The translations under genes were made by a program, and so were the position numbers. DNA of 63,760 nt, the filler included, from Hausera hauseri (lineage: Eukaryota): assembly GCA_046269625.1 (NCBI GenBank). It is 11 parts of 11 records of this genome, joined end to end, with 100 filler letters (N's around TTAATTAATTAA, not from the genome) between each part and the next. Parts side by side here need not be neighbours in the genome. Positions count along the whole stretch, not along the records: positions 12,028 to 20,766 come from JBJURY010551006.1; 10 more parts are not named here. One strand, written 5' to 3'. Each line of letters starts with the position of its first letter. The stretch's first letter is position 1. This document shows, piece after piece, positions 5,341 through 59,649 of the stretch. The notes beneath the pieces were generated by a model. The model made no database searches. It was given only the letters and a program-made list of their open reading frames with translations, and was not told the origin of the DNA.

Positions 5341-5604
5341 AAAGATGAATGTGCCTATAAACAAAATCGAAAATCAACAACATGATTATCATGAAAATGA
5401 AGAATTTCCGAAAAACAATTGTTAAATGTAAACCTACCAAGCAGGTGTCCGACAAAAAACGTATATTAAAAGGAACTGCTACAGTTAAGCGATTAATTAA
5501 TTCTGTGATTCGAACAACAAAAGCAGCAACTAGACGCAAATTACCGTCACAGTGGCAACGGTTGTAAACAACTACGTCTCATTAGCATCAATACGTCCAA
5601 AAAC

Positions 5605-5931
5605 ATGCAATTCAAACGTAGTCAGCCTTACTTTATTGCTTTGCTCAGGGCACCTATCAGACATAAGCGAAACATGCTGCGATCATTCCCGCAATTTGTA
5701 GCAGACGATTTGATAAAAATTTTATACAATATCGTTGTGGGTCACGTTGACATTTGTAATGGAAAGCGGAATTTACTAAAGTATCGAAAACGACTCATTG
5801 GCCTTGCCAACGTCCGTAGTAAACAACTGAAACGAGATGTCATGTTCCAGCAAGATGAAGGATTCCTTGGTGCAATTCTACCGATTGTCATGTCATTACT
5901 TGGTGGACTCATTGGTTCTTCAGCAGCATAA
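5605..5931 (+). CDS. Polinton small conserved virion protein with C-terminal amphipathic tail
   Basis: 108-aa basic ORF ending QQDEG-FLGAILPIVMSLLGGLIG, located between the ATPase and integrase. Confidence 0.65.
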   Translation: MQFKRSQPYFIALLRAPIRHKRNMLRSFPQFVADDLIKILYNIVVGHVDICNGKRNLLKYRKRLIGLANVRSKQLKRDVMFQQDEGFLGAILPIVMSLLGGLIGSSAA

Positions 5932-6075
5932 TATAAACAACGACGGTAAGTATATGATGATTGGGCGATATGGGTGCATAGTTTTCATCATTTTGCACCA
6001 GTTTACCGAATCTATCATGAAAGTTTCGTTCAAATTGTTGTAATGCAAACAAAACCGGCACCATCAACGACAACG

Positions 6076-7110: not shown

Positions 7111-8156
7111 TGAGCATTTATTTGGTATTTGATAGTAACAGATTATCAGAACATGAAAACAACAACAATACCGCTGAAAGGTTTACCATTGTGTTGGTCC
7201 AACCATTCAAGTTACGCCAGGAAGCCTGAGAAGTGGCTTTGGCGGAATTCACATTTAAAATTTCACCAATATCAATGTGTGAGAACAGTAAAATATACTA
7301 TACTCTACTAAGACAATCTCCTGCATCTAGTCGTTTGCAGTTAGTCCGAGACTCTAATGAAATATTTCACGTTCGCAATTACAAACGACAATATTTCCGG
7401 GTTTATATTTTTCATTTAAACAATCAATTGGTGCTAAAACACAAACAACAGATTGAATTGCAATTTAAATCACTAGCCGACACTCAGGCATGGGGTTTTC
7501 AATCTGTCAATTTGCGCTCGAAAGGTCTAGAGCTCGGTGGACATAGTATAATTAGTGAAAAATTGAACTTTTCCGAAAACACCATGAAAACTACCGATAA
7601 TACAGTGAATTAGCAAAAGACTGAATCATTCTTTTACTCTCATACAAGAGGAACTGGTTTTCTTACGGAAACGGAAGCAGAATTGTGCGCAAATATCAAG
7701 GCAGTAGCTAAATTGGCTCTCAATACATTTGAGTTAAACTTTGATGGTCGTATTTACTTTACACTACATGATAATGTTACATATTTTGCCTTTGATGAAC
7801 TATTAGAACGGAATCTGGGTTTTAAGAAACGAGAATTCCGTCAAACCGGTGGCGGGCGGCCAATTGTTGCTAAACAAAAACCACGTGTCTACGAAGCATT
7901 TCATCGAATCAATATTTTAACCTATCTAACTGAACCCGTATATGCTGGCGGAGACCGTAAACAACTATCGGCTTCTATTGTACTGGATTCGGACACATCC
8001 AAAATATCGGGCGAAACTGCTCACGTAAATATCATCCGGCCCATGCATTTATCATTGTCTCACAATTTTGTGCACAGTATTTCCGTCTATGTAGTAGACG
8101 AATTTTGGAAACCCATTAAATTTCTGTTTGGAGCCAAGACATATTTGATGCTATAA
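7110..8156 (+). pseudogene. Polinton minor capsid protein (penton), paralog 1
   Basis: N-terminal MSIYLVFDSN...EVALAEFTF. C-terminal LTEPVYAGG..QL, RPMHLSL...ISVYVVDEF.KPIKF. Confidence 0.72.
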
Positions 8157-8229
8157 TTTTTGTCGTCATCGTCGATAATAAACAAACTGTGTCATTATTA
8201 TCATTCTCATCATCATCATCATCGAGATC

Positions 8230-9348
8230 ATTAGTATTTACGTGGCGTTTCTAAGCAACAGTTGCCCGACGACTCGTCCGAACAATTCAGCCAGTGAATA
8301 CGTTACATATTGGAACAATCCTTTGGATTCATCTAGAAAATGGGAGGTTGCACTTACGGAATTTAACTTCCCCTACGAACCGGTGACATTGAAAGGTAGT
8401 ATGAAAATAACGTACAGCAAGTCTGCGACTGAAACAAAAACACATTCTTGTCCTTTGACAGTTACTAACAATAAAATAACAAATGCAGAATCGGCCATTT
8501 GCATAACCAACACAAATTACGATTCATACGGCAAGATCGGTGTTTTTATTTTAGGGGAAAACTTAGATTTTGTGGCAACTTTTGAATTTACTGTCACCTT
8601 TGAGTCCTCTGATGTGGCACAAAACTTTGGATTCAAAAATATAGAGCACAAAGGTAAACATATAAAAAGTGAATATGCATTTGCACCAAAATGAAGTCCC
8701 GTACATTACCAGACAACGGTGAAATATACCTATACAGCACAAAGGGTGTCAACACCATGCGTATTGATTGAAGACAATACCTGTTGCAAATCTGTATCCC
8801 GTCTCTGTCAACACTTTTTAAACCAAAAGTACAAGGTGATATTTAATGTTTTCGAGTCAGGTGCAAATGGATACATTAAATTTGAATTGGCTTAGGATAT
8901 TGTCGACATTTCATTGGACAAAGCTTTGGCCATGCTATTTGGTTTTGAAAAACAGCGGTTTGAGGCATCGACAAATACGAACACGGCGGTGGCATATGCT
9001 GCAACGCTTAAACCCAAATGAAAAACTGGTCTAAGTCAAATGTACATTTACGTGCATGTCACCGAACCTATTTTGGTCGGTGGAGTACGTGTACCGCTAC
9101 TCCGTGCAATTTATCCCGAAAGTAGCAAGTATACTGCTGGCGACAATGTCACTGTCAAGCTCGATAATCCAATGTACCTACTTGTGGCATCTACATCTAT
9201 AAACAATGTTGAAGTAAATGTCAGATGTGACGCGGGATACCTTATTGAATTTCCGTACGGTACCACAACCAGTCTAATTCTTCATTTCCGTCGAATCCAA
9301 CAACAACAAAAACATGATGGATTCCGAAATCGTTTCCATTTACAGTAA
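8230..9348 (+). pseudogene. Polinton minor capsid protein (penton), paralog 2
   Basis: FLSNSC...NSASEY...PL....WEVALTEF. C-terminal MYIYVHVTEPILVGGVRVPLLR...NPMY....INNVEVNVRCDAG..I.F..G.TSLILHFRR. Confidence 0.82.
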
Positions 9349-9673
9349 ACCGCAGCATGGTAGTAAACTGCCGTATTTTGTTGGTAAACAGTATGGCTCT
9401 GGATGGTTGCGTACACTGGCACGTTTAACATTTTCAGTGTTGAAGCGTATTGGAGTCGTGGCAGCAGAAACCGCACAGGATGTACTATATGAAAACAAAT
9501 CGACTTTCGCATCACTGAAGAAACATGCCTTGTTAGAAATAAAAAGCACTGCACCGGGAGTCGTTGAATCAGTCAAAAAACAATTCGCTGGCAATGGCTT
9601 GAGAAAACGCCGTAGAGCATCATCGAGCTCATCAACTATAAATAAACGTCGTTGTCTCACGATTTTCGATTGA
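9314..9673 (+). CDS. Polinton basic core-like protein (adenain-substrate type)
   Basis: QHGSKLPYFVGKQYGSG motif, QFAGNG, and an Arg/Lys-rich C-terminus ending IFD. Lies immediately upstream of the major capsid gene. Confidence 0.7.
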   Translation: MMDSEIVSIYSKPQHGSKLPYFVGKQYGSGWLRTLARLTFSVLKRIGVVAAETAQDVLYENKSTFASLKKHALLEIKSTAPGVVESVKKQFAGNGLRKRRRASSSSSTINKRRCLTIFD

Positions 9674-9684
9674 TTGATAGACAA

Positions 9685-10917
9685 ATGGCATCTACAAAAT
9701 CTGAATTGCTTATATTTGACAAAGCCGCACCATAAGTTGTTATTTACAATGTAGCATTTAAAGAAATCTACCCCTTTGATTCTGTTTCAACGAGCGATAA
9801 CATTGGCATTCAATTCAACATTATGGTATCGGACAATGAATATCACGATTTTATCGATACACTACTTTATGAAAAAGTCACTGTTAAAAAGGATGAATCA
9901 ACGGTTCTCGGTGCAACAGGCACTGTCACATCGGCTATTTATTTTTTCCTCACAATGTTCCAGGAAGCTTCACTGTCTTTAAACAGCGTCAAAATTGAAG
10001 GCAACACCGGTCTATACAGTATCGAAGCACCCATTGAAACAGCTCTGAATTACAGTACTAACACGAAAACGACTCATTTGACAAAAACCATCGGATATGA
10101 CGCCACTGCAGCAAACCGTCAGGTATGGGTGGCAGAATCAAAAGATCTTACAATACGTGGACCGCTGTACTTTGACTTTTTCGATCAGTCGAAATACCTA
10201 CTGCCCGGTGTTAAAGCATGATTTGGCTCAGATTCAGCGACAATGTCTTTTGTTTGAAAACTGCAGTTACAAATCTCAAACCCATACTGAAAATTACCGA
10301 GGCACGAGTATACGTACGTCGTGTAAAGGTAGAACCATCTATGCTAATGGGACATCGATTGGGCTTGGAAACACAAAATGCCTGTTATCCATTAAAACGC
10401 ATAGAACTCGTGTTTTACACTATATCCCAAGGTTCAACTACGTTTCACAAAAAGTCACTGTTTGACGACATGCGATTGCCGAAATTTGTGCTTGTTACAT
10501 TTCAAACGACCGTTCCACAAACGGGCAGTTATACCACCGATACGGAAACGTTCATCCATAGCAATGTAAATTACATCAGTTTGGGTAAAAATGAGGATTT
10601 CGTTGAGACATACGAGCAAGATTTTGAGACCGGCGATTATGTTTGCACATATATGCAATCTATCGTGCGCAACATGGGTTTACTGAACAAAAATGTTAAC
10701 AATGGCACATCGATGAATTTGTTCAAGTCCACCTATCCATTCTTCACCTTTGTCCTGGCTCTATATGATGACATTGAACAAATTCAACTATCTCAGCAGG
10801 GAAACCTACGACGGGATGTTCACTTTGGTAGTGTTGGAGCAATCTACCGTGATGTACATTTACGGTGTATTTAATGCCGAGGTTAAAATAACGAAAAACG
10901 GAACCGTCATTGTATAA
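9685..10917 (+). pseudogene. Polinton major capsid protein (double jelly-roll, hexon-like)
   Basis: Starts MASTKSELLIFD, then GPLYFDFFDQSKYLLPGV, LKITEARVYVRRVKV, A.YPL.R, LPKFVLV, QGNLR.DV.F and YGVFNAEVKI. Stops and frameshifts are present. Confidence 0.88.
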
Positions 10918-10967
10918 ATAAAATCCGCTGTGTCTCACCTTTTTGTTGTACTATGAAGTAATTTATT

Positions 10968-11366
10968 TTGACAACTACTACTATTGTGCTTAAATCACAT
11001 TTTACATTTAGCTCAACTGAGTTCAGTCAGTACGGAAAACTGCTCTTGGACGCGAAATTTCGTGGCATGTTTCCACTGGACTGTGTGCATCGTGATTTAC
11101 GACAAACTGGCGGCTTCACTGTCAATACACATACTTTGTCGTTACCTAGAAAACATTGGATTGCTGTGTACGTCCATCCGACCAACGTCGTCAGAGTATT
11201 CCATCCGCTTGGATTTTACTATCCGTTATCGTTAGTTTCTCAAATTGAAAGATAATCATTATCATCATACCATGTTGAATATAATATACTTCATTATTAA
11301 TATCCAATGACTATACTGTGTGGCCATTGATGCTTATTGTGGATTACATTACAATCAGTTTTATAA
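10968..11366 (+). pseudogene. Polinton adenain-like cysteine protease
   Basis: FRGMFPLD, VNTH....KHWIAVY, F(H)PLG and a downstream LCGH*C catalytic-Cys region interrupted by stops. Confidence 0.85.
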
Positions 11367-12564
11367 AATATATTTTATTTTGTTGCTGCTTTTGGTTTCT
11401 GTGTGTATGTGCAGTGAAATTCCGTTTTGTAAGCAAAAAACATAAAACTTGATTTTTAGAGCAATGATGATGATGATGATAATGATTTTCAACGACGATT
11501 TTCACAGACTTACAATCGTCTGATCGTGAGGAGGCAATAATATGAAATGCTCAACTATCGATGGGCTACGTTCTCAACACATTTCCACCACCGACTGACT
11601 TGTGCATGGGGAAATTTTGCCCATTTGAAATTTTCCCATCGAATTTTCCCCATGTCCCACCGTCCGACAACGTTGCAGCCGTGTCCACTGCAACCGCCAA
11701 TATCGGTTTACCCCTTGTAAGCATTTTCTGAGTGCTAGCAACATGTTTCCCGTTATACGTGAAACATTTCCTGTTTTGCTTCTTCCTCTTCTAGCGCCTC
11801 TCCCTTACATTTTAGTTATACCCCACATATATTAACTTTTGCTTACCTCGTCACGCGCTATCGATATCACTTTGTCCAAAGTTCATGCTCGACTTCCTTT
11901 TCGGCCGAGGGGTCCTGCGAAATTTTTNNNNNNNNNNNNNNNNNNNNNNNNNNNNNNNNNNNNNNNNNNNNTTAATTAATTAANNNNNNNNNNNNNNNNN
12001 NNNNNNNNNNNNNNNNNNNNNNNNNNNATACATACAAAAATTTTTACACAGTTTATACAAATTTTGCGCAAAACTTAGACAAAAATTAAATTTGGTCGTT
12101 TGGGAGATAATTTATAATCACCAAATATAACATGCGTGGTATTATCAATTAATTTTCGTTGCTTTTAACAATTATTAGCATAAAACTTTCGTGTTTAATA
12201 AATAGAAGCTGTTATGAAAAAAGAAGACCACGTCATGCAAATAAATCAAACAAATTTGAACCACTTTATTTCATTTTGAGCTGCTGAGAGCAGTCAACAC
12301 AAACTACGTTAACAAAAAGGAATAGTATCAAATCATTAAATACCTATTATATTACAAAAAGATCCAAATTACGATCCCGACAGCGAATACAAATAAATAG
12401 TTTATTTGCAATTTACAACATAAACTTCCACGAGGATAAAAATATAAGAATAATAATCTAGATCAGTGGAAAACAACTGGTTGCAGAATTTAATGTAATT
12501 AGATTTATGTACATATCGTATCTTTTGTACAGAATTTATACAATCTGAAAAGAAAAGAAAAATA

Positions 12565-15500
12565 TCAACAGATTCCTCGTAATTCCGAAAGAAAGAAATT
12601 TTCCAAACTATCGGCTGACTGATATTCACGCGTTGATTTGTCGTAGTATGTTCGACATGCTGTGAAAATTTTGTGTATGTCCAATTTGAAAGAACCCAAA
12701 TTCGAATATTTCATTCGATCTAATCTGTCTCGGGCAGTCGTCAGATCTGAACCGGAAACCATTAGTCATCACCCGTACGGCAAATATAAAAACATACCCA
12801 TCGGTGATCGAACTACTTTGTAATAACCCGGACTTTTCTTTTGATCGACAGGATACAAAAATGACACGGCGTCTTTATGTTTCTAAACAAAACACAAATT
12901 AGATGAAATATGATAAAGTTGTCCAATTAACCATCATTTTATTTAGCAGATCTGACAGCTTTTTGTGAATATCTGAATCGACTTTCCTTTCGTGATCAAA
13001 TTGAAAAGAACTCGACGATTGTTCTTTTTTCATCTTCTTCTTTCCTTTACCCTTAGAACAACTTGGGCATTTATAACTGCCCTCCATCTGTGTTGCTTCG
13101 TTGTCTGTCAGCCCAACACACGTTGGATGGTACCATTCATCACAATAGTCACAGGCAATATACAATCTGAATGTGAATGGTCAACAACCATAATTTTATC
13201 GGGTAAATAAGGTCACTTTGTAGGATCGTATGTTTTTCTACAACTGCAATAAATCTGATTCAAGTCCTCTTCAATTGGTTCCGAAGATTCATCTGATTTG
13301 ATACCGCTACAATTCTGGCATTTCCACGATTTTATCTGAGAAGCTTTCTTTTCGGTCATTCCAACACAAGAAAAATGAAACCAATTTAAACAAACATCAC
13401 AGCCAATGTAGTTTCTAATTTATGTCAATGTCAAAAGAATATTAGTAAAATGAACGTAAAAACTTACAGAGAACGATTGTATGGAGTTTTACAAATACAG
13501 TACAAACTGGATTCGTCATTACTTTCCGTTAATCGCAGTTTCTTCTCTAATTTTATTTCCTTTCCTGATGGAACTGTTGGTTCATGTGCATTTTTATTGG
13601 ATTTCTTCCGAGTTTTGGATGGAGTTTCTATCGGAGATAGATCTTCTTGGTACAGTTCAGCGTCGGAATTATAAGATTCTTTGTATGATCGCTTTTTCTT
13701 CACACCTTTTCTTGAAGACAATCGGTAGTTGTGCGTTGACGAGTCTGTTTCAGCAGCGTTTGCAATGCGTTCTTCGAAGTTTGCATCCACAGCCGGAGAC
13801 GTACTACCGGTTTCAACTTCCCGTTCGGTAAGTTCATCCGAACTACCTCGGTCTTTTTTCGTTTTCTTAATTTTTTTCGATTCTTTCTTCGCTAATTCGT
13901 TGAACTTCAGATCATCCAGTTTGTTTTGTGCGCGAATTGTTTCAATGTCAACAGTGTTTTGTTTCATTGAAATCATTCGATTGGAAATGGAACGTAATCC
14001 GCTGTCAAGATCGGTACATATATCGTCAAATTTGTTATCTTCACTACCCGTAGATTCTGATCGTCGTGACGATGACGTTCTATTACGACCTCGGCCTCTG
14101 CCGCGTATTTTACCGCGACCACGACCGCCAACTGTAAAAGGTACATCTGAGCGTGACATTTCTCGAATGTCCGTAAGGGGAACCGGAAGCACTGCAGGTA
14201 TATTGCTCGACTGAACAATTATGGGAGTTGACTGCATATCACATTTTGTATTTTCCACAGATGGAACTTTAGGAACCGTAGATTCAACGATCAATTTAGT
14301 TGATTTTATATCGTTTTTCATTACAGTCATATCAGGTAGAATGTTTGTCTGCTTTACAGTCGTAATCGGATTTTCAGGTGGGATCTGTGGCTTTTCGATA
14401 ATTGAAGGCACTGAGTTTTGCACCGTTGTGCTACAAATGATATTGTGCTCAATTTTAACAGGTTCGATTACCGGGTTGACTGGCTTTGGCATTTCGATGT
14501 TTGGAACAATCGAAGCAGCAAACGGCATAACCGGATAAGGAATTATTGGTCGTTGTGGAATCGGTGCGTCGTTTTTCTGGAATACGCGTTTATTGAGAAT
14601 AGAAGAAACCAGAGAATTGTGGCATTTAGGTTGAACAACGAAAGACCTTTTCCATTGAACATGCATTAAGAAATCTCTAATTTCCCAAAGTCCTAGATCT
14701 TCTTCACCCAACCATTCTTCGGAATACTTTTTTTCTGAAAGTCGGACTTCGGCCGTTTCTTCGGCGGTTTTGTAACGTGAGCGACGACTACGTGGTTTTG
14801 GAGTTCTATTAACACCTGGTATAAAATTCGGATCAGAATCTTCAGAATCTCGTTCACCGTCATCTGTGAAATTATCAGTATCAGCATAACGTGCCACTGG
14901 CCGGCGACCTCGACGACTCACCCGTTGTTTATTACCTGAATCCGTAGACTCCTCTGGTAATGTCGATATACAAATAGTAAGTAAATATGTGCATCGAGTA
15001 CAATATTTATCTAGTGGCCTCCATCCAATTAATTTCCGTTCCAACATATCCCCATTGGATAAAGTCTCTTTGAAAATATTTGGAAACTGTACTGAAGAAT
15101 TGACATTGTTTTCCCAATTAAGTAACATGTCATCCCAACGCAACGAATACCATAAAATCTTAAGACTCAAAGCTAAAGATGAAAGTCCAACGGATCCGAA
15201 ACTTTTAGATTTGTCGGTAGATTCCGATTGCGGTTCGGTTGCAAAGAGGTTACTGAATTTTGAGATTTTCTCGTAATTTTTGTTGAGAACTTGTGATACC
15301 CCGTACCTCCAAGTTGTGCAGAAACTGGGTCGGGCCGACGGATATGGCCAGTAGACGTTATTTGGACGTTTCTTTTCAACGTCGAACCCAGGGACTTCAA
15401 TTCTACCGCTTGCAAGAACTAAAAGACGCAAGGATTCCTTGCGAAACAGGAAAATATTTTTAATGTTGGCGCTATCTGTCTCATCTGGCCATCGGAAATG

Positions 15501-18434
15501 ATTAGGTGAAGGTAGAACGTATTCTTCTTCTTCTTTGTTAACCAATGCAGATGGTGATAGACGGAAGAGTTTGTATGGTTCTGATGTCTCGTTGTTAACT
15601 CGACTTATTTGAAACTGAAGTTCGGCAATATGTTTGTCTATCTGGTCGAGTTGCTGGTCACAATCGACAATCTCGTTACAAAGCGAATCAATTTCCTTTC
15701 TTTGCATTACTTCATCAGATGTATCTGTAATCGGAAGACGAGAATCGTTATTATGAGTTACTTTGCTTATCGTACGTCGGCCTTGGATTGGTGTTGTCTG
15801 TCGAGGTGTGCTGATCGGGTTATTTTGAAACGTACTCGTTATACCTGTTGTTACTGCACTACCGAATGTACCGACCAATGGTTTGTTTTGCTGCTGCGAA
15901 TCATGAGGTAACAACTTCTTGTACTGGGGCATTGTCTGGCTGCTGCTGATGCGAATTGGCACTTGGATGCCATTGTTATTTATATTACAAATGAGTCCCT
16001 GTTGGCTCAGTGGAACAACCTGGCCGTTGGACAATGTGGATGAACCACCCTGAACAATATTATTCAGAAGCAAAATGGGCTGGCCGTTAGGACTGATCTT
16101 TCGGATTTGCGGCGGGCCCGGCGCTGATTTACCAGCCAATTGAACGTTACCGGTATTGACTAACCGGATGAACGGACTCGTGGGAAATCGTACAAGTTGT
16201 GCTTGAGAAAAACACGGAGTACCAACAACTTGTGTTGGACGAGTGTTGATCATTAATCTATTCGGCTGGTTGCCACTGTTGTTTTGAGAAATATTTACTA
16301 AACACAGTCGATTAACGTTTGCTGAACTGCTGTTTACAAAAAGAGGTTGCTTCATGTTCACGTTTTGCAGAGTTGTCGTATCGGCGAAATTTGTCGAATT
16401 CATTGATGCTAGATCGGTAATGGTTGGATTTGATTTCACTGGAGTATTGAGTTCGTCATTGTCGTCAGCCCCATCAAATTGTGACACGTACGGTATGTTT
16501 TCATTTTGAAATCGCATACGCTTTTCACCAAAGTTGGACATTTCATAATTTGGAAATGGCCGTTTCTTATTGGCTAGCTGACCTCGCCATGATAGCAATT
16601 TACTATGGTCCTTTGAAAGGACATCAAGTCGACTTTCCAAGTCCTGTTTCTTGAGTGTCAATTCGTGTCGTTTGTTTGTAGATTCCGACAGATTTTTCTG
16701 ACACGAATCCAAGTCGTATTCTTTTACCGATCGTTGATATTCATTGACACGCAACGCCAAAATTGAATTGATAGAATGCGTAATATACGCTCCGTTTTTG
16801 TAAAACGTATCATTATCAATTTCACTGGAAATATCGATAACATCGAAAGAGGTTGATGCGAAATTTGGCGTACTTTTAATGGGCAGTTTAATAGCTGGGT
16901 GGAGATAAGGACAATAATTAATGTTCCCTTCGTCAGATATTTGTTGACGTGTTGAACAAAGAGTTGCGTATTTCCCCAAAGTCACTGTCGGTGAAATCCA
17001 ACACCATCCATTTCCGCCCATTCGTCTATATTCCTCGCCTTTTGTTTTCCAAATCATATGTCTCAAAAGTCCCGGGTTTCTCGTTTTAACAACTTCTCCT
17101 TCGGGTTTCTGAGTTTTCCGTTCTTGAATTTTAACACGTTTCTCTTCTTCTCTCTCTGCTGCCGTTATACGTTCCAGATAAAGATACCCCAATAAACCAG
17201 TCCAGCTTTTCTTAAAAGCACACGGCCGAATAGCCGTTTCAAACGTTGAGAGGAATTCAGCTAACGACGAAGCATTACGGACCCGTTGAATGTTGATTAA
17301 CCAATTCTTTCTCTCTGATTTCCAAGCCGGGCACATAAAAGATGAGAACATTTTCGTTTCAATGCTTTCCAAACTCAATCGTAAACATTGGAGCATATTT
17401 AACGGACCACCAAGAATATCATTTTCCGGCCTATTTATTGATAAATTAGAATTCGGCCAAACAGCCCGATTAGTTGGTTGACTGACGAACCAACTAAAAT
17501 CAATGCACTCATTAAACGAAAACTTATTGCCCAAAACCCGTTTCCTGTCTTTATCTTCCTGATGTTGAACTTTAGACAGAGCATCGAATTCCGTTGAATA
17601 TAAATTTTTATAAAACCTCCACATACCCTCATCACCAAGTCGATAAATGATTTTGTCTGATTCTTCAATTAAATTATAATTAACGATATCGGCAACTTCT
17701 TCCAATTGATTAGCACGAGTTTTTGCCGAGAGTCTGACGCGAATTGTAACACCATCAACACTGCGTACCAACAACCCTTCTTGATCCTCAACAACACCGA
17801 CGGGTAATCCGTTTAATGTTTTCAAATCATAGCTCTTTTCCACGATTGTATCAATATTGTCTGGTTCTTTGACAATCAACCCGTCGGCTGCATCTTCATT
17901 CTGTACATCAGTTTCATCACCAACGACATATTTTGCTATCTCTTCAAACAAAGCACTTTCAATTGGTTTCATATTTCCAATTGGAACGGATTTCCGAAAT
18001 TTACTCAATCCATGTTTCGTTAGAGTTTTAGTAACATTCATGGACTTCTTTATTTCTTCCACCAAACTATCGAATACATCACACAATTCTGATTCCCAAT
18101 CCCGAGACAATTGACTGCGCAGTTGTTCAACAGCATTCCACGAACTGTAATAAAGAACGCGTTCATATTCCGGTTTGAAGTTTGACTTGTTTTTCTGTAA
18201 AATAAATTCCGTCAAATTATCAATGTTATCGTTACGTGGTTCGATGATTAATCTTCGGGCAAGGAACCAATAGGTATTTCCAAATCGATCATAACCCAAC
18301 GGAGTTTTCTTGTGTTCCACCAGAGCTTTTTCTCCATCTAAATTACTTTCGTACAATCCGACAACTTTATGTTTAATGCAAATAGGACAGTTCCATTGAG
18401 ATTGCGGTACTGATGGTATACCCAAACAATCCAA
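12565..18434 (-). CDS. BPTF: BPTF/NURF301-like nucleosome-remodelling factor subunit (WHIM region, tandem C-terminal PHD fingers, bromodomain)
   Basis: 4.97-kb exon with PLGYDRFGNTYWFLARR, IWKTKGEEYRRMGGNGWCW, WPYPSARPSF..TW and LWEI. Four GT-AG introns at 13467-13415, 13216-13167, 12931-12883 and 12797-12747 give YCICKTPY..YIGCD.C..WFH..C, YCSCRKTY..YIACD.C.EWYH..C and a bromodomain (FLYPVD...PGYYKVVRSPMDL). Stop at 12565. Confidence 0.93.
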
Positions 18435-18920
18435 ATGCTAAACAGCTGAACAAGATTCACAGCAAAGAACTTCGCCTCTCGTCTGACTTATTCGACATAA
18501 GTCCTCGTGAGTTGTGAAAATTTCTCGAGATATTTCCGCTCTCAGTGATGGACCGTAGACGAATAAATCCAATGAAAATTCGAATACGTTAGTTCGATCG
18601 TCAAGACAAGCGAATAGGTACGATTCTGGAATGGTTATTATCTCTCCAGTTGTATCGATTGAGGTGATGTATTGTTGCCACATTTCCGGCCGTGTCATAA
18701 CATCCATCAAGAAATACGTTAAATTAACGCAATCCTTCTGATCCAATGAACACAATGACGTGTTCGCATATTCATCTTCACGAATTAGCAATTTTAATCA
18801 AGACATGAATTTCTGATAATAACATGGAATTTTCATTGGAAAGCATTGAATATATGAAATCTTCAATTTTAAATGGTGACAAATGTAAAATTTTATAATA
18901 TTGTATCAGTTTCGTACATC
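18435..18920 (-). pseudogene. BPTF: Degenerate BPTF N-terminal segment (DDT domain and first half of PHD1)
   Basis: ILHLSPFKIEDF..LLSEIHV, LIREDE, DQKDCVN..MDVMTRPE, LCCESCSAV*HLDC. Two frameshifts and a TAG stop at 18438. Confidence 0.8.
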
Positions 18921-19110
18921 TCTGACACCATTATTATGAGAATATATAATTCCAAAATACGAAGAATAAACCCAAATATAATTGCAAGGCTCCACGTTAT
19001 AAAAATATTATTAATGAAATTATAAAATAACAATCGACGACATATAAAATTCGGTCAAAATAAAATATCAAAAACAAATAAAAATCACGGATTCGGTAAA
19101 CATCATAAAT
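18921..19110 (-). mobile_element. LTR 3' end plus truncated tRNA-Leu primer-binding site
   Basis: The minus strand reads ...TCATAATAA-TGGTGTCAGA (PBS 18930-18921). Upstream blocks match the LTR end at 55990-56110. Confidence 0.65.
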
Positions 19111-19284
19111 TTTGCCCATATGAAACAACATATAAACATACAAATTAAAAAGCGGATTGTAAGTGCTGGGGCTATCAGCACTTGTAGCCAACAAAAAATC
19201 TGTGGATTTAAACTCGCTTGTTTAAATCCACAGTTTAAAAGTCAGTTGATAGTTTTCAAAAAGAAAAAAAGAAACAAGCACAAA

Positions 19285-20283
19285 ATGCCAGAAATCACAA
19301 GAATCAGGAGTCAGAAAAAGAATGTATTGACCAACGGTGATGGAATCCAAAGGAATGAATTGACCAACAGCGATGGAACAAAAATGAACGAATCGACCAG
19401 CGGCAGCGACAAGAAGAAAATGCCTTCCATGACCAGCAGCTATGATGGAAAGCAAATGTGTACTACCAAGGCACCGAAACTTGGGGAACCCATCTTCAAG
19501 GAAGGTGCGAAGGCCACACTAGTCGGCGTCGCCGTCTCTGAAAGGAATATGCGGCCCGTTCCGAACTACCGGATTCCTAAACGATCCCAACCAGATCTGG
19601 TAACGATACAAGACCTGGACGCCAGTCGAGCCTCGACATTCAAGCCAGACCAGCAATGCCTGACCCGGCGCGATACCGTTTCCCGCGAAAGACGACGCCG
19701 CAACACCGGCAAGCGAGCCCCGTACTGGTCCTACTCGGATTTTCTGACGGTACGGGAGCTGCTACAACGGATCCATTGGTGCGACACCTAGTCAGGTTGG
19801 GGTGGGATGACTCCTGCTCTTTACCCGTGGGAACACTATATCCGTTTTATGAGGACGGGGAAAATCGACGTCTCTTCGACTCGTCTGTTTTCCTGCCGGT
19901 TTTCCTTAGATTGATGGCGGCAGCCGACCGCCTCTACGAATCCTTGGCTTCCTCGGAGAGTCAGTTAATTCGAGGTCGCCGAACCATCGAAGCACTACGG
20001 ACACGGACGTGGAACTCCAGCTCGAACGACATTCGAGCCCATCCACGACTACTTCGCAAACTCAGGTCGTCTCGATCCACTACCGCGGACTCGTATGCCT
20101 CAGCAAACGGCGGTTGTCATGATAATAAACGTTTCGACAATTATACAGCTTTGTTCCTTTTTTTTTGTTTTATTGTTTTGGCGCCACGATGTTATGGGAC
20201 AGAGTTAAGGCCTTACCGTAGATTGTGTTCGAGTTTACTGGTTGCAGCTAGACTGTGGTGGCGCCCGAGTCCGCGGCACCACA
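19285..20283 (+). mobile_element. GC-richer insertion with unknown ORFs and an LTR-like terminus
   Basis: ORFs 19120-19791 and 19656-20288 include short 12-aa repeats (LTNGDG/LTNSDG/MTSSYDG). AATAAA near 20124. Ends GGCACCACA, the reverse complement of the TGTGGTGCC LTR start at 55110. Confidence 0.35.
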
Positions 20284-22165
20284 CATAGAATACGTACATT
20301 TGTTAAAATCAATGATCCGTCTTCGAAATGTCTCCAAAAGATCAATTAAAGTGGATTAAAATACAGTAAACTACAAACTAAAACAGTGGAGGTACAGCAA
20401 CGTGCAATAACAAGTAGAATTTTTACTCATTCAATAGGTGGCACGACGCAAAGGCAGATTTATATCGTGGTGTATCAATATTTTACGCTGCACCAATGAC
20501 TTTCGGTACATAAAGTTATTCACCAAATCTGAAGATAGATCCTCTCTCCTTAGAGTCCGCATGAATTGAACTGAATCAATAACCAAATTGTAAACATTTC
20601 TTAGACGGCACTTGTTCATTTTACACCATAGTTAGTTTTGACTGTCAATGAGAGCTATATCACTGCACGCCTATTTAATCATACACTAATTTCACATATA
20701 ATTTCAATCTCACTTATTTAATCACGTAAATTTCATGTACATAGTAAAGGGCACACCATCGCATATNNNNNNNNNNNNNNNNNNNNNNNNNNNNNNNNNN
20801 NNNNNNNNNNTTAATTAATTAANNNNNNNNNNNNNNNNNNNNNNNNNNNNNNNNNNNNNNNNNNNNTTCGATTAACTGCTAAATTTGAATGTGTGGCATC
20901 GATGCCCTGCAGCTCCGACGATTCCAGTCGCAGCATTACGAAAGCTCAGTTTCACTTCCATTCCTTTTGGATCTGATCCTCTGCCATCCATACAAGCATT
21001 TACAATTCTGATGTACGATACGGCCTGAAACAAAAGTACTACATTATACGCAGCCTTCGGTGCTCATACCACAGAGCACCTCAGGAAGGTTGTTTTCCAA
21101 GATTACGGTTTCTTTCTCTGTGCTTTTTAGTCAAAAGTGAAATATTTTATATTTCGTTTATAGTACAACATAGATGGAATAGTAAAATCCTGAGACACTT
21201 ACATAAAAGATTTCTTTAGTCTGGACGATTTCGTCTGAGCACTTTGTTTGTGACTGAACCAGTTTCACGTCTTAAAGTTTAGACAAATTGCTTCCAAATA
21301 CTGAATATTTCCATATTCTGTTCAAATGTTTCATTTCATTGGTACATTTTTCGAATGTCGAAGTCTATATAATGATGGAAATTTAATTTTGCCAGTCAGA
21401 TTTTCTAGTACAACATAGCTTATAGAGAATTAAAATGATCTAAGCTGCAACTGCTAATCAAAAAATTTTAATTTTACATTATTCGAGATAATTATCTTGT
21501 CAGTAACTATCATTTATTGATTTTATTTTAGTTTGTAAATTACATTATCAAATTAATTCCGAATGTCTGTCTATTCTTGAAACGTACTGAGATTATTAAA
21601 TATAGCTTTTCATAAGAATTAGAAAATTTTGAATCTTCATCATGTTCAGTCTCCGTCAATTTAAAGGGAGCGACTTATCTTTCAACATTTGAATTAAATT
21701 GGCAAGAGAACGAGAGATAGAGAGCACATCCTTATCTATCCTATCTTATTGGTAATGTTTAGGGGCAATGCACACGTGCGTCTCTTTACTATGGTTTAGT
21801 TGGTCGTACGTTAGTGATTTGGGACGCAATCCAACAGAAGGTTGGGCCACTACCAAATTAATTTCGAACTTGATTTAATAAGCCAACATGTTTCAAAGTA
21901 TATGTTGACCACAAATAAAAAATAATCATATGGAAATTAACCAAATGAAATATGCCAGTATTTATTTTTAGTCAACAGTATAAGTAGTCATTGTAAATAA
22001 ACTCATTCAATAACCACTACTGTGTTAGTATTTGAAGGTGGGCCCTATCCAACACCCAACTATAGCAATGATGAATTACACTCAAATTTATTTAAGATTA
22101 TGCAGGTAAGTTCTAACGTTCTCATTAGAATGTTTGCACTAATTTTATTATGCCTGTACTGCGTG

Positions 22166-22887: not shown

Positions 22888-23304
22888 TTACGAATCTGAT
22901 TCATCGCGTGGCGATCGCATTTCTAATCGGTATGCTGCAGTAGGCCTCGGAGGAAGTATCTCCATTATTTTATTATTCTCTGCGTTAGAGAAATATCGTA
23001 ATCTCGTAGATTTGACCCGACATACTGGGCAGGTCGTCTTCCCGTTTTCCAGGGTCCATATTTCTAAGCAACACCGACATTTATTGGTGCAATCCTTATT
23101 ATCTAGTACTACGAATCCTTGATAGAGGCTTGCGTCGCAAACGGAGCATTCTTCCTTTTCGCCTCTATCTAGATCTACAATATCTTGATTGACTTCAATT
23201 CGTTCGAACACAAGTCCTTGTTTATCCTGGTATAGATAACCATATAATTGTTTTTGCTTGGGATCTATGGAACTCTTTTTGGGGTCATCCGATACGGTTA
23301 CCAA
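22888..23304 (-). CDS. RING-finger protein or domain inside the Gypsy element
   Basis: CSVC-x15-CTNKCRCCLEIW-x7-TCPVCR is a RING-type spacing with the conserved W and CPxCR. The His ligand position is altered. Confidence 0.75.
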   Translation of the reverse strand: MVTVSDDPKKSSIDPKQKQLYGYLYQDKQGLVFERIEVNQDIVDLDRGEKEECSVCDASLYQGFVVLDNKDCTNKCRCCLEIWTLENGKTTCPVCRVKSTRLRYFSNAENNKIMEILPPRPTAAYRLEMRSPRDESDS

Positions 23305-23309
23305 CGTTC

Positions 23310-25306
23310 ACTCGATGATTTCTTGTTGGTCTAAATTTAATATTCCTGTCTTGTATATTTTCTTCAACTGAACACGAACTTGGGTGTATACCGGGATAGT
23401 TAGTCGTTTGGTACCGTTTCTCGATTGAAATATTGTGCTAAATATTTACCAATTTGTGCATCTTCTCGGACAACCATTTCCGCTTACGATTCTCCTCGGG
23501 ACAGTGGAGACGTAAAATATTGCTTCTTTAATCTTTCTTTTACTATAATATTCGGCCATGACGAGTATTTTGGTGTATTCCTTAATTTGACCGAACTCCG
23601 TTACTACTATGGGGGTCAGTTCTTTCCAATTCTTTCTGTGAACATTTACCTCGGTTCTCGGTGATTCATAACGAGAAATTTTCATTCCCTGTTCGTTGGG
23701 CTTTTCGACTTTCTGCCGTTTCGGTTTAACCTTCTGGCTTGTTGCTTCCTCTTGAGTATTTGGTGCAAGCTTGCTGCTAGGTAGGTTTATCTCCGGTATG
23801 ATTGTTACTGGTTTTATTTTTCTTCCTGCTTATATAATCACAAAGGGAAAGTTTCGTCTTCTGTATCTTCTGGGGTTTTCTGGTTCTAATTTTCGTAAGT
23901 TTAGCTTCTACTCTTCTTTTCTGGTGGGAAATTTGATTATGTACGGTTTTAGACTTATCATAATTATTAGGGATTTCGTCGTTCCATTTGACCTTGACTA
24001 GTCGATTGGGTTTCTTGGTTATTTCTGCTTGGTTTTATCTGTTTCTGTTTGGGCAATTGGACTGGCTTGGTTTGAACAGTGATTTGAAAATTGTTACCTC
24101 TTTGTGGACCTATATGCCTGTGTACAGGGTATTCACTGAATCCTCTGCGAAATTTCTGCATCAAATTGTTGGGATTGATGTCAGACATCAAATTCTACAC
24201 GGGATTTCTTGGCTTCCATTCATGATCCCATCGTAGAGAAACGTAAATATCTCTTACGAGTTTTGTTCTCCGACTTGCTGTGAGTATCTTATGGAAACGG
24301 AAATATTCGCAATTTATGGCTTCTAACATCATTTTGAATTGGCATTCTCGTGATGCCAGAGGAAGCAAGCATCCTCTTTTTTCCATTAGAGTGCTCTCTG
24401 TTCGACTTACGACTGTCGGATTGCGACTCAACTCGCGGATTTCAGCTATATATTCTTGTCTGATTCCTAGCCTTTTCATCTCATGCACTGTATATCCTGC
24501 TACAATGAAATCATACAAGCAATGGCTTATGTCTTGTATTTCAAGGAAATCCTTACCCTTTTCGAGTTGCAACTTTGTAATTCCTGTAACATCAGGAAAG
24601 GTATCCTTCACTTTAGTTCTGGGCGCTATTATCTTGTTTATTACTTTCTCCGTTTACATTTCTGATGGAAACTGGTGTATACTATCCATCTTCTTTCTCT
24701 CCATAGTTCACTGCTATGATCCTAATATTTCTGCCGTGTGGAACTAGTCTAAACGATTTTCCATGCTGTTCTATTTTGTCTTCCGAAGGCTTCTGCAGGC
24801 ATAAGATTTGTGGTAAGGATTTCATTATTTGAGTACGTAATGTCAGTTCAAACATGATTTTTGTTGGAATTTCTGCTATTCTAAACTCTAAAGCATAATC
24901 CATGAGGTTAGAGCAGCGTAGCTCATAGGTACTAAATTTCCATTGTTGGCCCTTTGGAGTACTCCAGGGCTGTCCTACGATACTGTACTGGATCTCGCCA
25001 TCAGCGACATGTATGCACATTTGCTGATGTGTCGGTTGATATGGAATCAAATCTCTCAACAGGTATGCTTGTGCATCCTTTGAGTTTCTCATTTTGTATA
25101 AACGAACTAGTCGGTTTTCTTCTAAGCCTCACTTTAATTCATAAACTCTCATGGTCAATTTCCACATAGGTTTTATTTTTCAGGTTTTCTCCAATTTGAC
25201 GATATAGACTTTTCGACGGGAGATTTAAGACTGTCACGTGCTGTTGCAAGAAATCATCTATCTTGTGTCTGGGACCGTGTACTGGAATCTTCGCTTTCTC
25301 GGCCAT
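23310..25306 (-). pseudogene. Unknown accessory ORF(s) of Gypsy copy A, broken by stops and frameshifts
   Basis: Chain of co-oriented ORF fragments (25306-25139, 25092-24682, 24611-24195, 24191-23967, 23685-23446) starting MAEKAK after a splice-acceptor-like site. Confidence 0.55.
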
Positions 25307-25411
25307 ATTTACTCTTCTGAAATAGAAATAAAGATCAATCCTAAGGCAGATCATCGTCTTGAAACAAAACATTTTCTCTGTCTGATGATAGGATAACCAG
25401 ATCTGTAGTTG

Positions 25412-26730
25412 TCAGGTTATTCTATCATAAAGTTCGTCTTGGTAACCTTTCACCCGTTTACCTCCTTGCTGATTTTTGCAGTCCTTATTACAATTTTTGG
25501 AAACTAGAAAAATCGTCTCGGTTATCATGGCGAGAACGAAGGTTGAGAAACTAAATATAGATATTTTCGTTAAGTTATTCGTTTTGGTAGAATTTTCCGT
25601 TGTAATAGAAATTTGGATGATAGTATCCTTATTTTGCATTACTCGAATTTCGTTCGGGGTTCGTCACGTAAGGGTTTTATGTTTTCTACCTTCTGCGGTA
25701 ACTTGAATTATATAGTCGTATTGCGGTCGTAGCGATTTACACTCAGTGTTCTGACTATCTTTTCTTAACATCACAATTCGGCTAGTATACAGGGTACGAC
25801 ATTCAATTTTGATCTCGTAATTTAACGTTTCATCGACGTAAAATAGTATTCTGTTATGGCCTACCAAAAATTTAACAGGTATATTTTCTAGTTCTCTCTC
25901 GGGTAGTTTACTTGAAGTGACAACATCTGTAGAAATAGTTGCGCTTGAAATAGATGGTTTTCTCGTAGTTATTGGAAGGGAAATTTTCCATACTCGAATT
26001 TTTGGATAATATTTTCTTAAGTACTTTGTTCGTTTGGATAATTATTATATAGATCGAAATTCACTTTGTGCTCATGGCCCAGCGGTATTTTGCAACACGG
26101 GTTTGGTTGGTTCTGCGCGATATAACAGTATTTCACTAAGGGAGTTGATTTCTTTATCGGTATAAATTGAATGGAAATTTGTCTGTCGTCTGGTAGTTCT
26201 ACTTTGGTTTTTATCTGTATACATTGGTTTTTGATGTCTTTGAAGATTCTGATTACGTTATGATCTAAAATTCATCTTAGTGGATCGGTACTTTGAATTA
26301 TATCGTTCGTATTAGTTTGACTTATCTCATTCTGTTTAAGCATATCTATACTGAGCTTCGTAAGTATATGGACTTGAATTCCACGTATATTATAGTAGGA
26401 CATTTGCAATTCGTATTTGTATTTTCGTCAAAAATCTAACCTTCAGCATTTCCGTTGAGCTCCGTGAGGGAAATAACAGGTTCTTACTGCAGCGTTGGCT
26501 TTGTCTATGAACAATATTCGAAATTTTACATGGTCTCTAACGGGTTTGCTTGCTTTAAACCAAGCGCAGGGTTTTCCCAATACATATCGTAAACTTAGTG
26601 ATTTTAAATTTGGTATATCTCTTCGTTTCTCTGCATGTTGTTCTTCGGACAATCCGGAAATATTTTTCGGCATATATGATGCAATTAGAGAGCGCTACTA
26701 TTTGCACGTATGATATAGGCCTAGTGCTTA
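25412..26730 (-). pseudogene. Env-position type-I membrane protein with FN3-like domains (copy A)
   Basis: Hydrophobic signal, two Cys-rich repeats, S/T linker, KSLRPQYDYIIQVT, TM ISIFSFSTFVLAMITETIFLVS and tail ELYDRIT. Homologous along its length to 32061-33395. Confidence 0.75.
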
Positions 26731-26779
26731 TTGAGGACGTTTTCTTTTTTATGCTACGATTTTGATTTTCGTTAATTGA

Positions 26780-27665
26780 GCATAGATTATAACGCTTATT
26801 CGGCGTAATTTCCGTTCTAATAACTCTGTATTGATACGAATTTGCCGTTTTTGTTAATATAAACTGTAGTCGTCGTGGTTCGGATAACTTCGTAAGGTCC
26901 TCTTCCGGTACAAATAAGTTTCAAGGATGTCTTTCTTAGCTACTGAATAATGTGCATAAACCCAACTTGCTTGTTCTAGATCATGCGGTTTATCTTTCTT
27001 GTCATACTGTCTTTTAAATTGCTCGTGGTATCCTTGAGATACTTCTTTTGCTACTTCCAAACACTTTTGCAGTCTTGTCTGTAGCACTTCGGCAAAATTC
27101 TGTTCTAAGTCTTCTGGATTTGCTGTATACGGTATCATTCCTAGATCCGTCAGTAATAGGGCTTTTCTGCCACATATCATAAAGAATGGAGTAAATCCAA
27201 TCGAAGGGTGTGGTGTAGTGTTAATAGCAAATTGTGTACCTTCTAAAAATTCATTCCAATCTTTTTGGTCCTTCACGACTATTGTTGATAAGATTCGTAT
27301 GACTGTTGCGTTCATGCGTTCGACCATTCCGTTACATTGAGGGCGATAAGCTGTCGTGGTTAATCGTTCAATTTCAAATATTCTGGTAATTTTATCGAAT
27401 AATTCACTTGTAAAATTTCTTCCTCTATCTGTCAAGATTTGTTCGAGGGCCCATATCTACAGACAATTTTTCTTACTACGGCTTCTGCCAGAGTTTCAGC
27501 TTTTTGATCCATTAATGCCATTAGTTCGACAAAATGAGTTAATCGGTTTATACATGTCAGGATGTATTTATTACTTCTATGAATTGTAGGCAAGAGTCCT
27601 ACAAAATTCATGGACATCGCTTGCATCGGTCTGTCCGGTACATTTATCGGTTTGAGTTCGGCAAT
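26780..27665 (-). pseudogene. Gypsy integrase (copy A)
   Basis: SM(N)FVG.LP, TDRGRNFTS, TTAYRPQCNGMVERMN, W...L....FAINT, GFTPF and a GPY region. Confidence 0.93.
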
Positions 27666-55346: not shown

Positions 55347-55930
55347 ATGATTCCACTTCAAATTGCTCCATTCAAATATGAACCGAATTCCAATGAATAT
55401 AAAGACGTACTCATCACGAAAATTGAACGAATCTTGCGACCAAAATTCTCATGCGACATCGTCCTGTTTATCAAAGAAACACCATTTTACGGTCATCGTA
55501 TTGTTCTTGTTTCAGCCAATCTCTACTTCTGCTGTCTCGACGAATACGATTTTAATTCCACCATGCGAAAGACTCATACGAGAAATAAAAGCTGTGGAAG
55601 TTGTCCTTTGGAAACTACGCATGAACTACAAACTACTGGTAATGCTCAGAAACATTGAACATTTCCTTTCCATCTTTTGGGTTATTGAATCTTGTATATC
55701 AACTTTTAGTGCCAACAGTATATATCCGCAGTACAGCAAGGACCAAATTACTCAATCAATTTATTAACTGATGGTATAAACGATTAGCGTGCTTCATGGT
55801 TGTTGGATAAGGTCCGTGTGGCAATTTTGGCAGATTCAGTGTTTCGTGTACAGACTTTTCTGTAATTTTAAACGTGTAGAAAAGAAATTTTTTAAATAAT
55901 GTAAAGGTCTGTTTTCTTCAAGTGAAAAAC
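55347..55930 (+). pseudogene. BTB/POZ (Kelch-like) gene fragment
   Basis: CDIVLFIKETPFYGHRIVLVSANLYF matches the BTB N-terminal motif. A broken continuation follows near 55770-55920. Confidence 0.6.
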
Positions 55931-55989
55931 TTTTGGATTTAAAAAATACAATCGATTTTAGCAGCCATATTGAATTTTTTTTCAATTTA

Positions 55990-56129
55990 GATTTCATGTA
56001 TCAAATACAGCGACTTATTTTATTCTGCCGATTTTATTTGATCCTACAATTTACGATATTGGATTTATCATCGTCTAACATACGTCGTTTTCTTTCGAGG
56101 ATCATAATATTGGTGTCAGAAGTGGGATT
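55990..56129 (+). mobile_element. LTR 3' end plus tRNA-Leu primer-binding site
   Basis: TCATAATAT-TGGTGTCAGAAGTGGGATT (56111-56129) is complementary to the 3' end of eukaryotic tRNA-Leu (...AATCCCACTTCTGACA-CCA). Confidence 0.75.
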
Positions 56130-56177: not shown

Positions 56178-57284
56178 ATGATAAATAATTCTGTTGAGAG
56201 CAAATCAATTTTTGTTTCGGGAGTTATTGAAGGATTTCATGGACGCTCCTGGACGCCAAGTCAGCTGTTTGATTTATTTCAGAGATTGGAGAATTTCGGA
56301 ATGAATACGTACGTTTATGCACCGAAACATGATTCGAAACATCGACAGTTATGGCGCACTTTATATACGAATGCAGAACTTATGCTGTTAAAATATCTTA
56401 TTGAAACATCAAAGCTGTGCAAGGTAACATTTGTTTATTGCATTTCGCCAGGTTTAGCCATTACTTTTTCTGATCCTACGGATATTTTCATGCTAAAACA
56501 AAAAATGTTGCAGGTATCTGAAATAGGCTTTGAATCATTTACAATGCTTTTTGATGACATTGATTCTAATTTAAAAGAAACTGATTCAAAAGTGTACAAT
56601 TCGTCAGCTCAAGCTCAGGTCTCAATAACAAATGAAATACATGATTTTTTAAAACGTCAGAAATTGTTTTTCTTTTGTCCAAAAGAATATTGTGGAACTC
56701 GAGCTGTTCCATCTGCTAAAGAGTTTGACTACCTAAAAACTGTTGGAGAATTTTTATTACCAGAAATTCGCGTTTTGTGGACTAGTCCAAAAGTTGTTTC
56801 GAAATTTATTCCGGTACTGTCAATCATTGAACTATCTGCCTTTTTGCGACGATTTCCTTTTATATGGGACAATATCCGCGCTAATGACTATGGTCAACGT
56901 AGACTTTTCTTGGGTCCGCATTATGGCCGTTCATCGAGTCTAATTCAATACGTCAGCAGAGTACTTACCAACCATAACTGCGAGTTCGAGGCTAATTATA
57001 TCGCAACCCACACGTTGGCTCAATGCACACAATGTTATAGAAAAGCGCTAAAATGTGCTGTTGTCGATTGGCTGATGGTTTTGTGTGATGTCGATAAACA
57101 TTTCGAAAATACACACAAAGTGAACAAAAAATTAATTATCGACAATAATTCATCAAATATACAGTTCTATACTGTTTCAAAAACACACTGTCAAACCTTT
57201 GCAGGATATGACTGCTCAGATTTTGATCCTTATACGCTGCAATTGAACTGCCAAATATTGCTACCATTCAATACCCCCAAGTAG
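56178..57284 (+). pseudogene. OGA: O-GlcNAcase (GH84) copy, intronless, C-terminally truncated
   Basis: GVIEGF(H)G, YVYAPK(H)D.KHR, ISPG, FDDI (catalytic DD intact), CPKEYC, WT(S)PKVVS, WDNI(R)ANDY and NCEFEANY. Several normally invariant residues are substituted. The ORF ends in the inserted element at 57280. Confidence 0.88.
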
Positions 57285-58561: not shown

Positions 58562-59649
58562 TACATCGCATATTAGATGATGGAGTTTAATATGCAAGAT
58601 GGGAAAAATTATTAAGTCCAGATAATTATAAAGAAGTGATGATGAATTTTCTGAGAACATTGTCAAGAGGTTTTATAAAATTTGGTACCGTGTCAGCAGG
58701 AATTTTCACAATTTATTTAAGAGTTCAAACAGCTAAAGCCATTCTTTCATCATTACTAAATGCATATGAAATATATACTCTTACAGGTGTTTCGTTAAAA
58801 ATACTATCTGTTGTTTAACACCATTTGGTATGATATTAAAAGCGCATGATGAAAAAAGATAAAAGAATCTGGTAGAAAAACATGTTAATCTAGACAACAG
58901 AAAAAAGAACGCCACCAAACACCTCCACCAAGAATGAATATTGAAAACAATACCTACACAGAAGCAGCTATGACAAGCACAAATATCCAGAACTTTCCTC
59001 TAATTACTGAAAAGATTGAAAAGGAAATTAAATATCCTTATGGGTAGCATGAAAACAACAGGAAATTAATTGTTATACCAAGAGCACTTAACCAGACTGA
59101 TTTAATATATAGTGAACAACTTAAACAATTATGTCAGTATCCCGATTTAACATCCCTAGCACAAAATTGGAAAACAACCAGACCAGTGTCATCACCAAAA
59201 TTTACTTCAATTAGACCATCATCTCCATTACTAACTAATTCAATTTTAGTAGAAAATAAAACTTCTGAACTGCCGCTAAATGGCAAATTTATAGTTGAAA
59301 ATGGTTTCATTAGAACTACAGGTGTATATTCTTTATTAGCTTTAGTTGAAAATCCTAATAAAAAACAACTTCAGTCTATAAGTCGTACACACGAGCCAAG
59401 ACCACAAACCACCATACGTATTCGAAATATAAAAATAAGTGCTTTAATTGATACAAGAGAAACAATGACTCTGATACATCAAATGCTTATCTTAATGAAA
59501 TATCAACATGAGATAAGACTATCAAGTCATCAAATGGAGGTAATACATTACTTTTTGGACAGACAGTATTTTCTGCAGGATATTGGACTACTGAGATAAT
59601 TATTTATGAAAAATAATTAATAGTAACGATACAAGTAATGAAACAATTA
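58562..59649 (+). mobile_element. Gypsy gag-protease remnant
   Basis: RPQTTIRIRNIKISALIDT(R)ETMTLI resembles the retropepsin A-L-I-D-T-G motif, preceded by broken gag-like ORFs. Confidence 0.55.

Follow-up and report, generated by a model that had tools for sequence, protein, structure and literature searches.

The minus-strand segment at 18438-18919 probably represents the 5' end, now decayed, of a partial, multi-copy BPTF duplicate, and it starts directly behind a partial tRNA-Leu primer-binding site (PBS). The duplicate likely arose when a Ty3/gypsy-type LTR element was being reverse transcribed and synthesis switched to BPTF mRNA, and it was likely joined to the real gene by the assembler. 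The confidence placed in this whole reading is somewhat above even. The process would likely be LTR-mediated retroposition by template switching, followed by amplification and decay, which has already been described in animals.

The window (the whole stretch of DNA analyzed, 63,760 nt) consists of 11 spacer-joined contigs. The BPTF-side junction is on the contig at 12028-20766, and a host piece from OGA (O-GlcNAcase) is found on the contig at 53884-59649 (Table 1). At both sites the host piece is sense-oriented with LTR-element sequence on its 5' side, and both PBS motifs are followed by host frames in the position where an autonomous element would carry gag-pol. On the 3' side, env-like and protease-like remnants are present at OGA, and the BPTF contig runs into a single-copy gene.

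Table 1. Positions in the window of the features at the BPTF-side and OGA-side junctions.
Feature	Position	Strand	Remarks
First 10 letters of the PBS, tRNA-Leu type	18921..18930	-	Next three letters, 18920-18918, equal PBS positions 16-18 (weak extension)
8 letters identical to those preceding the OGA-side PBS; candidate LTR end without canonical CA	18932..18939	-	
Decayed BPTF piece, DDT to first PHD finger	18438..18919	-	Frame shifted near 18910 and again near 18800; stop codon at 18440-18438; loss of conserved residues
Multi-copy 5' BPTF segment, likely extent of the captured piece	16100..18919 (approximate; lower limit 16017-16400)	-	Depth in run X1
Uninterrupted 1657-codon BPTF frame with WSD motif; likely the large exon of the functional gene	13464..18437	-	
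3' half of BPTF, single-copy, with exons for PHD, PHD and bromodomain and four GT-AG introns	12527..16017	-	
Moderately repeated, T-rich stretch (47% T) preceding the BPTF-side PBS motif; candidate short LTR or U5; contains both blocks	18936..19192	-	Depth 33-213
High-copy repeat block with 17-bp-arm hairpin (19197-19236)	19195..20284		
8 letters, one spacer letter and perfect 18-nt tRNA-Leu PBS (56111-56128)	56102..56128	+	
N-terminal catalytic piece of OGA, open from its ATG without intron, stop or frameshift; stalk and C-terminal part absent	56178..57074	+	
AT-rich segment preceding the OGA-side PBS; candidate short LTR	55870..56101	+	
Env-like (chuviral/gB-type) fusion glycoprotein, broken fragment	58591..58791	+	PF24664 E 1.4e-9
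Retropepsin-like remnant	59330..59596	+	RVP E 0.0066, below curated cut-off

The start and decay of the BPTF piece

Homology to BPTF begins abruptly within the DDT domain, at about 18919 on the minus strand, directly behind the PBS motif. The DDT match (Pfam E 1.2e-9, model positions 15-49 of 58) is in sense orientation and the homology stops at the motif, as the earlier note had proposed from the letters alone; its reading of EMYE..YYKILHLSPF as a single frame has to be given up, as a frameshift lies near 18910. Profile matches start at 18909, and nothing significant was found by HMM upstream of that position. The 24 conserved residues that should precede YE score 37-60 in nine of ten relatives, and the best score reached in the window is -19.5, against a null of -26.9 ± 8.7. 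The closest BPTF relatives share 59% identity. Five candidates for the native DDT sequence were drawn from longer proteins, none of which passed, and none of eight pattern matches to BPTF relatives in viral contigs was confirmed.

Two frameshifts and one stop interrupt 18919-18438, after which 1657 codons are open. At an equal rate of decay, three frame breaks in 482 nt versus none in 4974 nt have a probability of about 4e-14, and about 31 breaks would be expected in the open part, where none is present. The organism, an animal, has short introns, and four of 49-53 nt with GT-AG ends (13467-13415, 13216-13167, 12931-12883, and 12797-12747), chosen by eye and consistent with the tblastn breaks, are found in this gene. 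The description of the BPTF copy as intron-less is therefore not borne out for the contig; the multi-copy part of BPTF falls within one large exon.

Copies in run X1 and a likely mosaic contig

X1 is one public run, the only one found to cover the contig; it may be the source data of the assembly, and depth in it is not a copy number. No RNA run was listed as covering the contig, from which nothing follows about expression. The BPTF-side junction is spanned by a 114-nt X1 contig (18852-18965, depth 17.6, no differences). Another X1 contig (depth 5, 10 differences or about 10% diverged, two extra letters) has an alignment that begins at 18831, crosses the motif and ends at 18935, leaving 95 letters unaligned, probably from upstream. 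Three X1 contigs of the upstream repeat end at 18936. The continuation of the diverged copy through the motif suggests one capture that was then amplified, with variable LTR ends.

Positions 12527-16017 are covered by a single X1 contig of 3491 nt at depth 11.8 with no differences. At 16116-19035 the summed depth is 19-66 over many diverged X1 contigs, which represent several diverged copies of the 5' 2.5-2.9 kb. Among 40 of the 43 variant rows for the 5' part, 32 are coding, and at nine of these 32 the residue found in the relatives is present in another X1 contig, among them Tyr in place of the stop, and Trp at 18692. Other X1 contigs of the 5' part have a stop of their own, a Cys loss, and indels, and the one from which the stop is absent has itself lost a Cys. 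Among the listed X1 variants, no allele of 18438-18919 was intact throughout, which is not proof of absence as contigs drop variants. Synonymous differences make up seven of nine at 16626-17892 versus seven of 32 at 18411-18897 (Fisher p 0.004), the rows being tool-selected and the nine coming from the 40 rows listed out of 491.

The decay, together with the diverged copies of the 5' segment, points to a family of decaying copies, from which the contig likely passes to a functional gene. Since the 3' half is single-copy, fully open, and carries four introns, what the contig shows is likely not an intron-less retrocopy but a mosaic in which a decayed partial copy is joined to the real BPTF gene. 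It would cross from the one into the other near 18437. If so, the BPTF model on this contig is a mosaic, and the gene would be mis-annotated as lacking the DDT domain and the first PHD finger.

A correctly assembled single locus, in which the 5' end of a full BPTF allele or copy gave way to an LTR element and the 5' 480 nt were then brought to a pseudogene state by conversion or by decay, seems most improbable. X1 contigs identical to the window at 18408-18550, 18544-18691, 17927-18234, and 12527-16017 would agree with it, but the single-copy 3' half would then make this the sole full BPTF, missing DDT and the first PHD finger, and the sharp boundary of decay is what would be expected of a contig path that switches between copies.

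The primer-binding site and chance resemblance

The earlier note described a motif common to the BPTF and OGA sites, and this stands: it occurs exactly twice in the window, at 18921-18938 (minus) and 56103-56120 (plus), where 0.16 occurrences are expected at ≤3 mismatches, and when extended by one letter the two sites agree at 18 of 19 letters (18939-18921 and 56102-56120). On the OGA side all 18 letters of the PBS are perfect; on the BPTF side 10 of 18 are intact, perhaps 13. The OGA-side 18-mer equals the start of a tRNA-Leu(CAA) probe (PMC7997516, excerpt), and the first 12 letters of the PBS equal the Leu PBS of metazoan Ty3/gypsy elements (supplement rows of PMC13524379). As 18920-18918 equal PBS positions 16-18, two readings fit: the proposed junction inside the PBS, or a PBS that was complete and has undergone a short internal loss.

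That the motif at BPTF merely resembles a PBS, being derived by mutation from BPTF or from flanking sequence, is very unlikely. Taken without an anchor, the 19-mer match is unremarkable, being one of three cross-contig pairs at ≤1 mismatch outside known repeats, so that two further near-identical pairs arise by chance in the window; the 10-letter core alone is expected 0.09 times. One frame of the motif reads IIMVSEM, which loosely resembles the helix before YE, a likeness whose score is reached by 10.5% of random 12-mers against a profile with two misregistered rows. Anchored on the perfect PBS, however, the match is expected 8e-5 times in the whole window and has a probability of about 1e-8 within 10 nt of the given site, the breakpoint, and the LP-SS-DL block that all ten relatives possess is missing upstream in every frame. 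The PBS-anchored match is thus hardly attributable to chance.

Pattern scans of public collections returned five metagenome and 21 viral-collection matches, all with unrelated flanks and no PBS tail. In one of three viral-collection matches (L003), the PBS lies between an end in ..ACA and a 493-codon open frame, which has a weak match to a Gag nucleocapsid zinc knuckle (E 0.0036) and none in Pfam or PHROGs. There is no tRNA gene in the window, and the single Rfam match is below cut-off and not credible. A spliced leader was considered as the source of the motif and ruled out, as the junction at BPTF falls within coding sequence and the motif at OGA is complementary to a tRNA.

The sequences upstream of the two motifs

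Since every Leu-primed element has the 10-letter core, family identity can be judged only from the sequence upstream of it. The identity of the eight letters before both PBS motifs has a chance of 7e-5 by local composition, which rises to 2e-3 when the last three letters are discounted as a constraint on LTR ends. The matching upstream blocks reported in the earlier note exist and are collinear (19065-19044 with 56018-56037, and 18989-18959 with 56043-56074), but beyond the eight letters they are statistically borderline, with an overall range of p 0.03-0.5. The upstream segments align with a score of 110 versus a shuffle maximum of 117, reach p <0.05 in three of 16 settings and p 0.06-0.19 in all five of a further set, and give p 0.03 for a two-block score that was defined post hoc. 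Unrelated parts of the window align as high as these two segments, and no match was found between them by blastn.

Both upstream segments are T-rich and 230-260 nt long, with large indels between them. The LTRs of the Leu-primed Mag and Mdg3 elements are 145-264 nt (PMC3286476, excerpt), so the two segments are similar in size to Mag/Mdg3 LTRs. In the window, no TG..CA pair, second LTR, purine tract at the 3' junction, or target-site duplication was found that would delimit an LTR; both candidate LTR ends read TA, not CA, and the candidate starts are 19193 or 20285. Of the claim that both host genes lie behind the same LTR-PBS, the eight identical letters before a tRNA-Leu PBS are observed, and the shared LTR is drawn from those letters and the two weak blocks. 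On this sequence comparison, the same or a related family is likely represented at both sites.

The block at 19195-20284 appears in run X1 as a separate or nested high-copy block relative to 18936-19192, and no identification was obtained for it with Pfam, PHROGs, Atlas, or Rfam. It contains, on the plus strand, long frames of 247 and 235 codons that match no family, and a GC-rich hairpin near 20256-20283. The hairpin at 19197-19236, with near-perfect 17-bp arms, has a summed depth of about 11,000 in X1 and is an extremely abundant short element. Past 20284, the consensus of the loose ends has a minus-strand purine tract such as is found before a 3' LTR, which suggests an LTR boundary.

The OGA piece and its surroundings

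The OGA frame starts with an ATG 49 nt past the PBS, has an N-terminus like that of its relatives, and continues for about 300 codons until the homology ends near 57074. On this side the switch could have taken place at any point of the 49 nt that separate the PBS from the ATG. Thirteen of 93 invariant sites differ; in 15 relatives the number is 0-6, and a single fast-evolving relative reaches 12, so that decay is likely, not proven. The parental OGA was not found, the best relatives being 46-53% identical. The stretch at 57075-57281 was considered as the OGA stalk and rejected, as three of 16 alignments gave p <0.05, at inconsistent places.

On the 3' side of OGA lies a TIR element (57279-58562), followed by the env-like and protease-like remnants on the same strand as the PBS and OGA. 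The env-like fragment covers positions 521-582 of 653 in its model, and the protease-like remnant matches gag/protease clusters at 0.81-0.85, which is a lead only. The TIR element is non-coding, with inverted ends of about 90 nt and internal repeats, and occurs in two contigs (57279-58562 and 48873-49586). A frameshifted BTB-like fragment at 55347-55870 (plus; E 0.0055, weak) abuts the OGA-side candidate LTR and could be a third captured piece; a 10-nt purine tract follows just after it, at 55878.

Origin of the host pieces

For the junctions to arise by template switching, host mRNA would have been co-packaged and minus-strand synthesis would have shifted onto it. Synthesis would then have returned to the element at the PBS on the similarity of two or three letters, most simply through misdirected transfer of plus-strand strong-stop DNA, the 3' end of which would be the PBS copy. 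Two or three letters may fit both the end of the PBS and the codon before YE. The chimera would have gone on multiplying as a non-autonomous element before it decayed, and the OGA piece would derive from the same or a related Leu-primed family in a separate, second event. Plus-strand transfer is, most simply, the presumed source of junctions at the PBS edge.

A smaller but appreciable share of confidence goes to an origin by DNA-level events, in which a BPTF segment was duplicated as DNA (segmentally, or borne by a Helitron or TIR element) and a deletion or break repair set an LTR-PBS remnant in front of it, with no host RNA reverse transcribed. Intron loss is not shown for either piece, the upstream segments differ by large indels, and nested repeats make a patchwork of the window, a TIR element lying on the 3' side of OGA. 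A decayed vigilin-like fragment of KH repeats at 50230-51515 (minus; Pfam KH_1 E 2e-10 and 6e-12) has a 5' flank like a splice acceptor and no PBS; it is likely a DNA-level duplicate, and it shows that host fragments here also arise by other routes. Against this origin, two unrelated genes are both in sense and both ≤50 nt from the same PBS motif, the OGA start codon is included just behind the PBS, and random deletions would have no reason to stop at a PBS twice. Template switching onto host mRNA is therefore preferred for the BPTF and OGA pieces.

The earlier note went further and proposed one LTR family that systematically takes many host transcripts exactly at the primer site, which now appears rather doubtful. 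Much of what it described is present: two cases in 64 kb, with identical letters before the PBS, both pieces in sense behind a tRNA-Leu PBS, and BPTF truncated there and multi-copy; the BTB-like piece just upstream of the OGA-side segment (weak at its E of 0.0055) could be added. For the recurrence itself there are two cases (n=2), one of which, OGA, has a switch point placed only to within 49 nt; no LTR is delimited, family identity is borderline, and every metagenome and viral-collection pattern match is unrelated chance. In its fullest form, and with the same small probability, the plus-strand strong-stop end of a Leu-primed LTR family might be a recurrent capture point for host mRNAs (BPTF, OGA, perhaps a BTB gene), whose reverse-transcribed copies it would join directly to LTR-PBS, yielding many non-autonomous elements with an all-host interior, whose transcripts possibly feed small-RNA control of chromatin genes.

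If template switching followed by amplification and decay is the true account, a poorly sampled animal joins those with LTR-mediated retroposition. Should junctions be found to cluster at the PBS edge genome-wide, this would point to the second strand transfer, and not two minus-strand switches, as a main route of gene capture, a testable refinement of the standard model.

Other features of the window

A RING-like frame lies at 22891-23307 (minus; E 0.0055), and several frames at 24200-26900 and 32064-33400 (the latter minus), with no family match, are located on the 3' side of gypsy pol remnants, in a pair of related elements sharing 69% identity. Positions 2450-3733 and 36027-38210 hold decayed mariner-like transposase frames, identified by eye, with 29-nt inverted ends at 2450 and 3733, and a long array of degenerate tandem repeats, with frames open on either strand, occupies 41875-48300. 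A fragmented gene cluster at 5500-11250 (plus) has no confirming Pfam match; by eye it resembles a Polinton/adintovirus-like element.

Comparison with known systems

Host inserts beside LTRs in avian retroviral DNA were reportedly described by Dunn, Olsen and Swanstrom in 1992. Decayed, multi-copy host fragments are likewise left by Pack-TIR, Pack-MULE, and Helitron capture (compare PMC8277862), which is, however, DNA-based and keeps introns. Neither terminal inverted repeats nor Helitron ends were found at the 5' junction of the BPTF piece, the 3' junction of the copies being outside the window.

The type of PBS is shared with the Leu-primed Ty3/gypsy elements, namely Mag and Mdg3, which also have short LTRs (PMC3286476, excerpt), and the env-carrying errantiviruses (PMC13524379, excerpt). 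Unlike in these elements, there is no gag or pol behind either PBS here. A gB-type env is known both in Leu-primed Ty3/gypsy elements and in BEL/Pao (same excerpt of PMC13524379).

In HIV-1, an aberrant second (plus-strand) transfer misdirects plus-strand strong-stop DNA and gives junctions at or near the PBS (PMC12657518, excerpt). The acceptor in the cases excerpted there is a downstream viral position, with deletions and tRNA read-through, and not a copy of host mRNA as would be the case here. No report of host capture at the PBS edge was found in the open literature, subscription papers being outside its scope, and the terms "PBS" and "primer binding" do not occur in the main text or in nine of ten supplements of PMC5131818.

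The closest parallel is the LTR-mediated retroposition that Tan et al. (2016) described in metazoans, in which partial host mRNAs replace internal frames through switches driven by microsimilarity and are later amplified (PMC5131818, excerpt). The junction in the present case lies at the PBS edge, unlike in those retrocopies, for which alone intron loss and both LTRs have been demonstrated. A single switch site was reused in five retrocopies of BLASTOPIA (PMC5131818, excerpt). In common with the retrocopies of Tan et al., a partial host coding piece is fused in sense to LTR-element sequence and takes the place of the internal frames; the similarity at the junction may likewise be short, and the product would later have spread as a multi-copy non-autonomous element. 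The position of the OGA piece, between the PBS and the env-like and protease-like remnants on one strand, is also as in the structures excerpted from PMC5131818.
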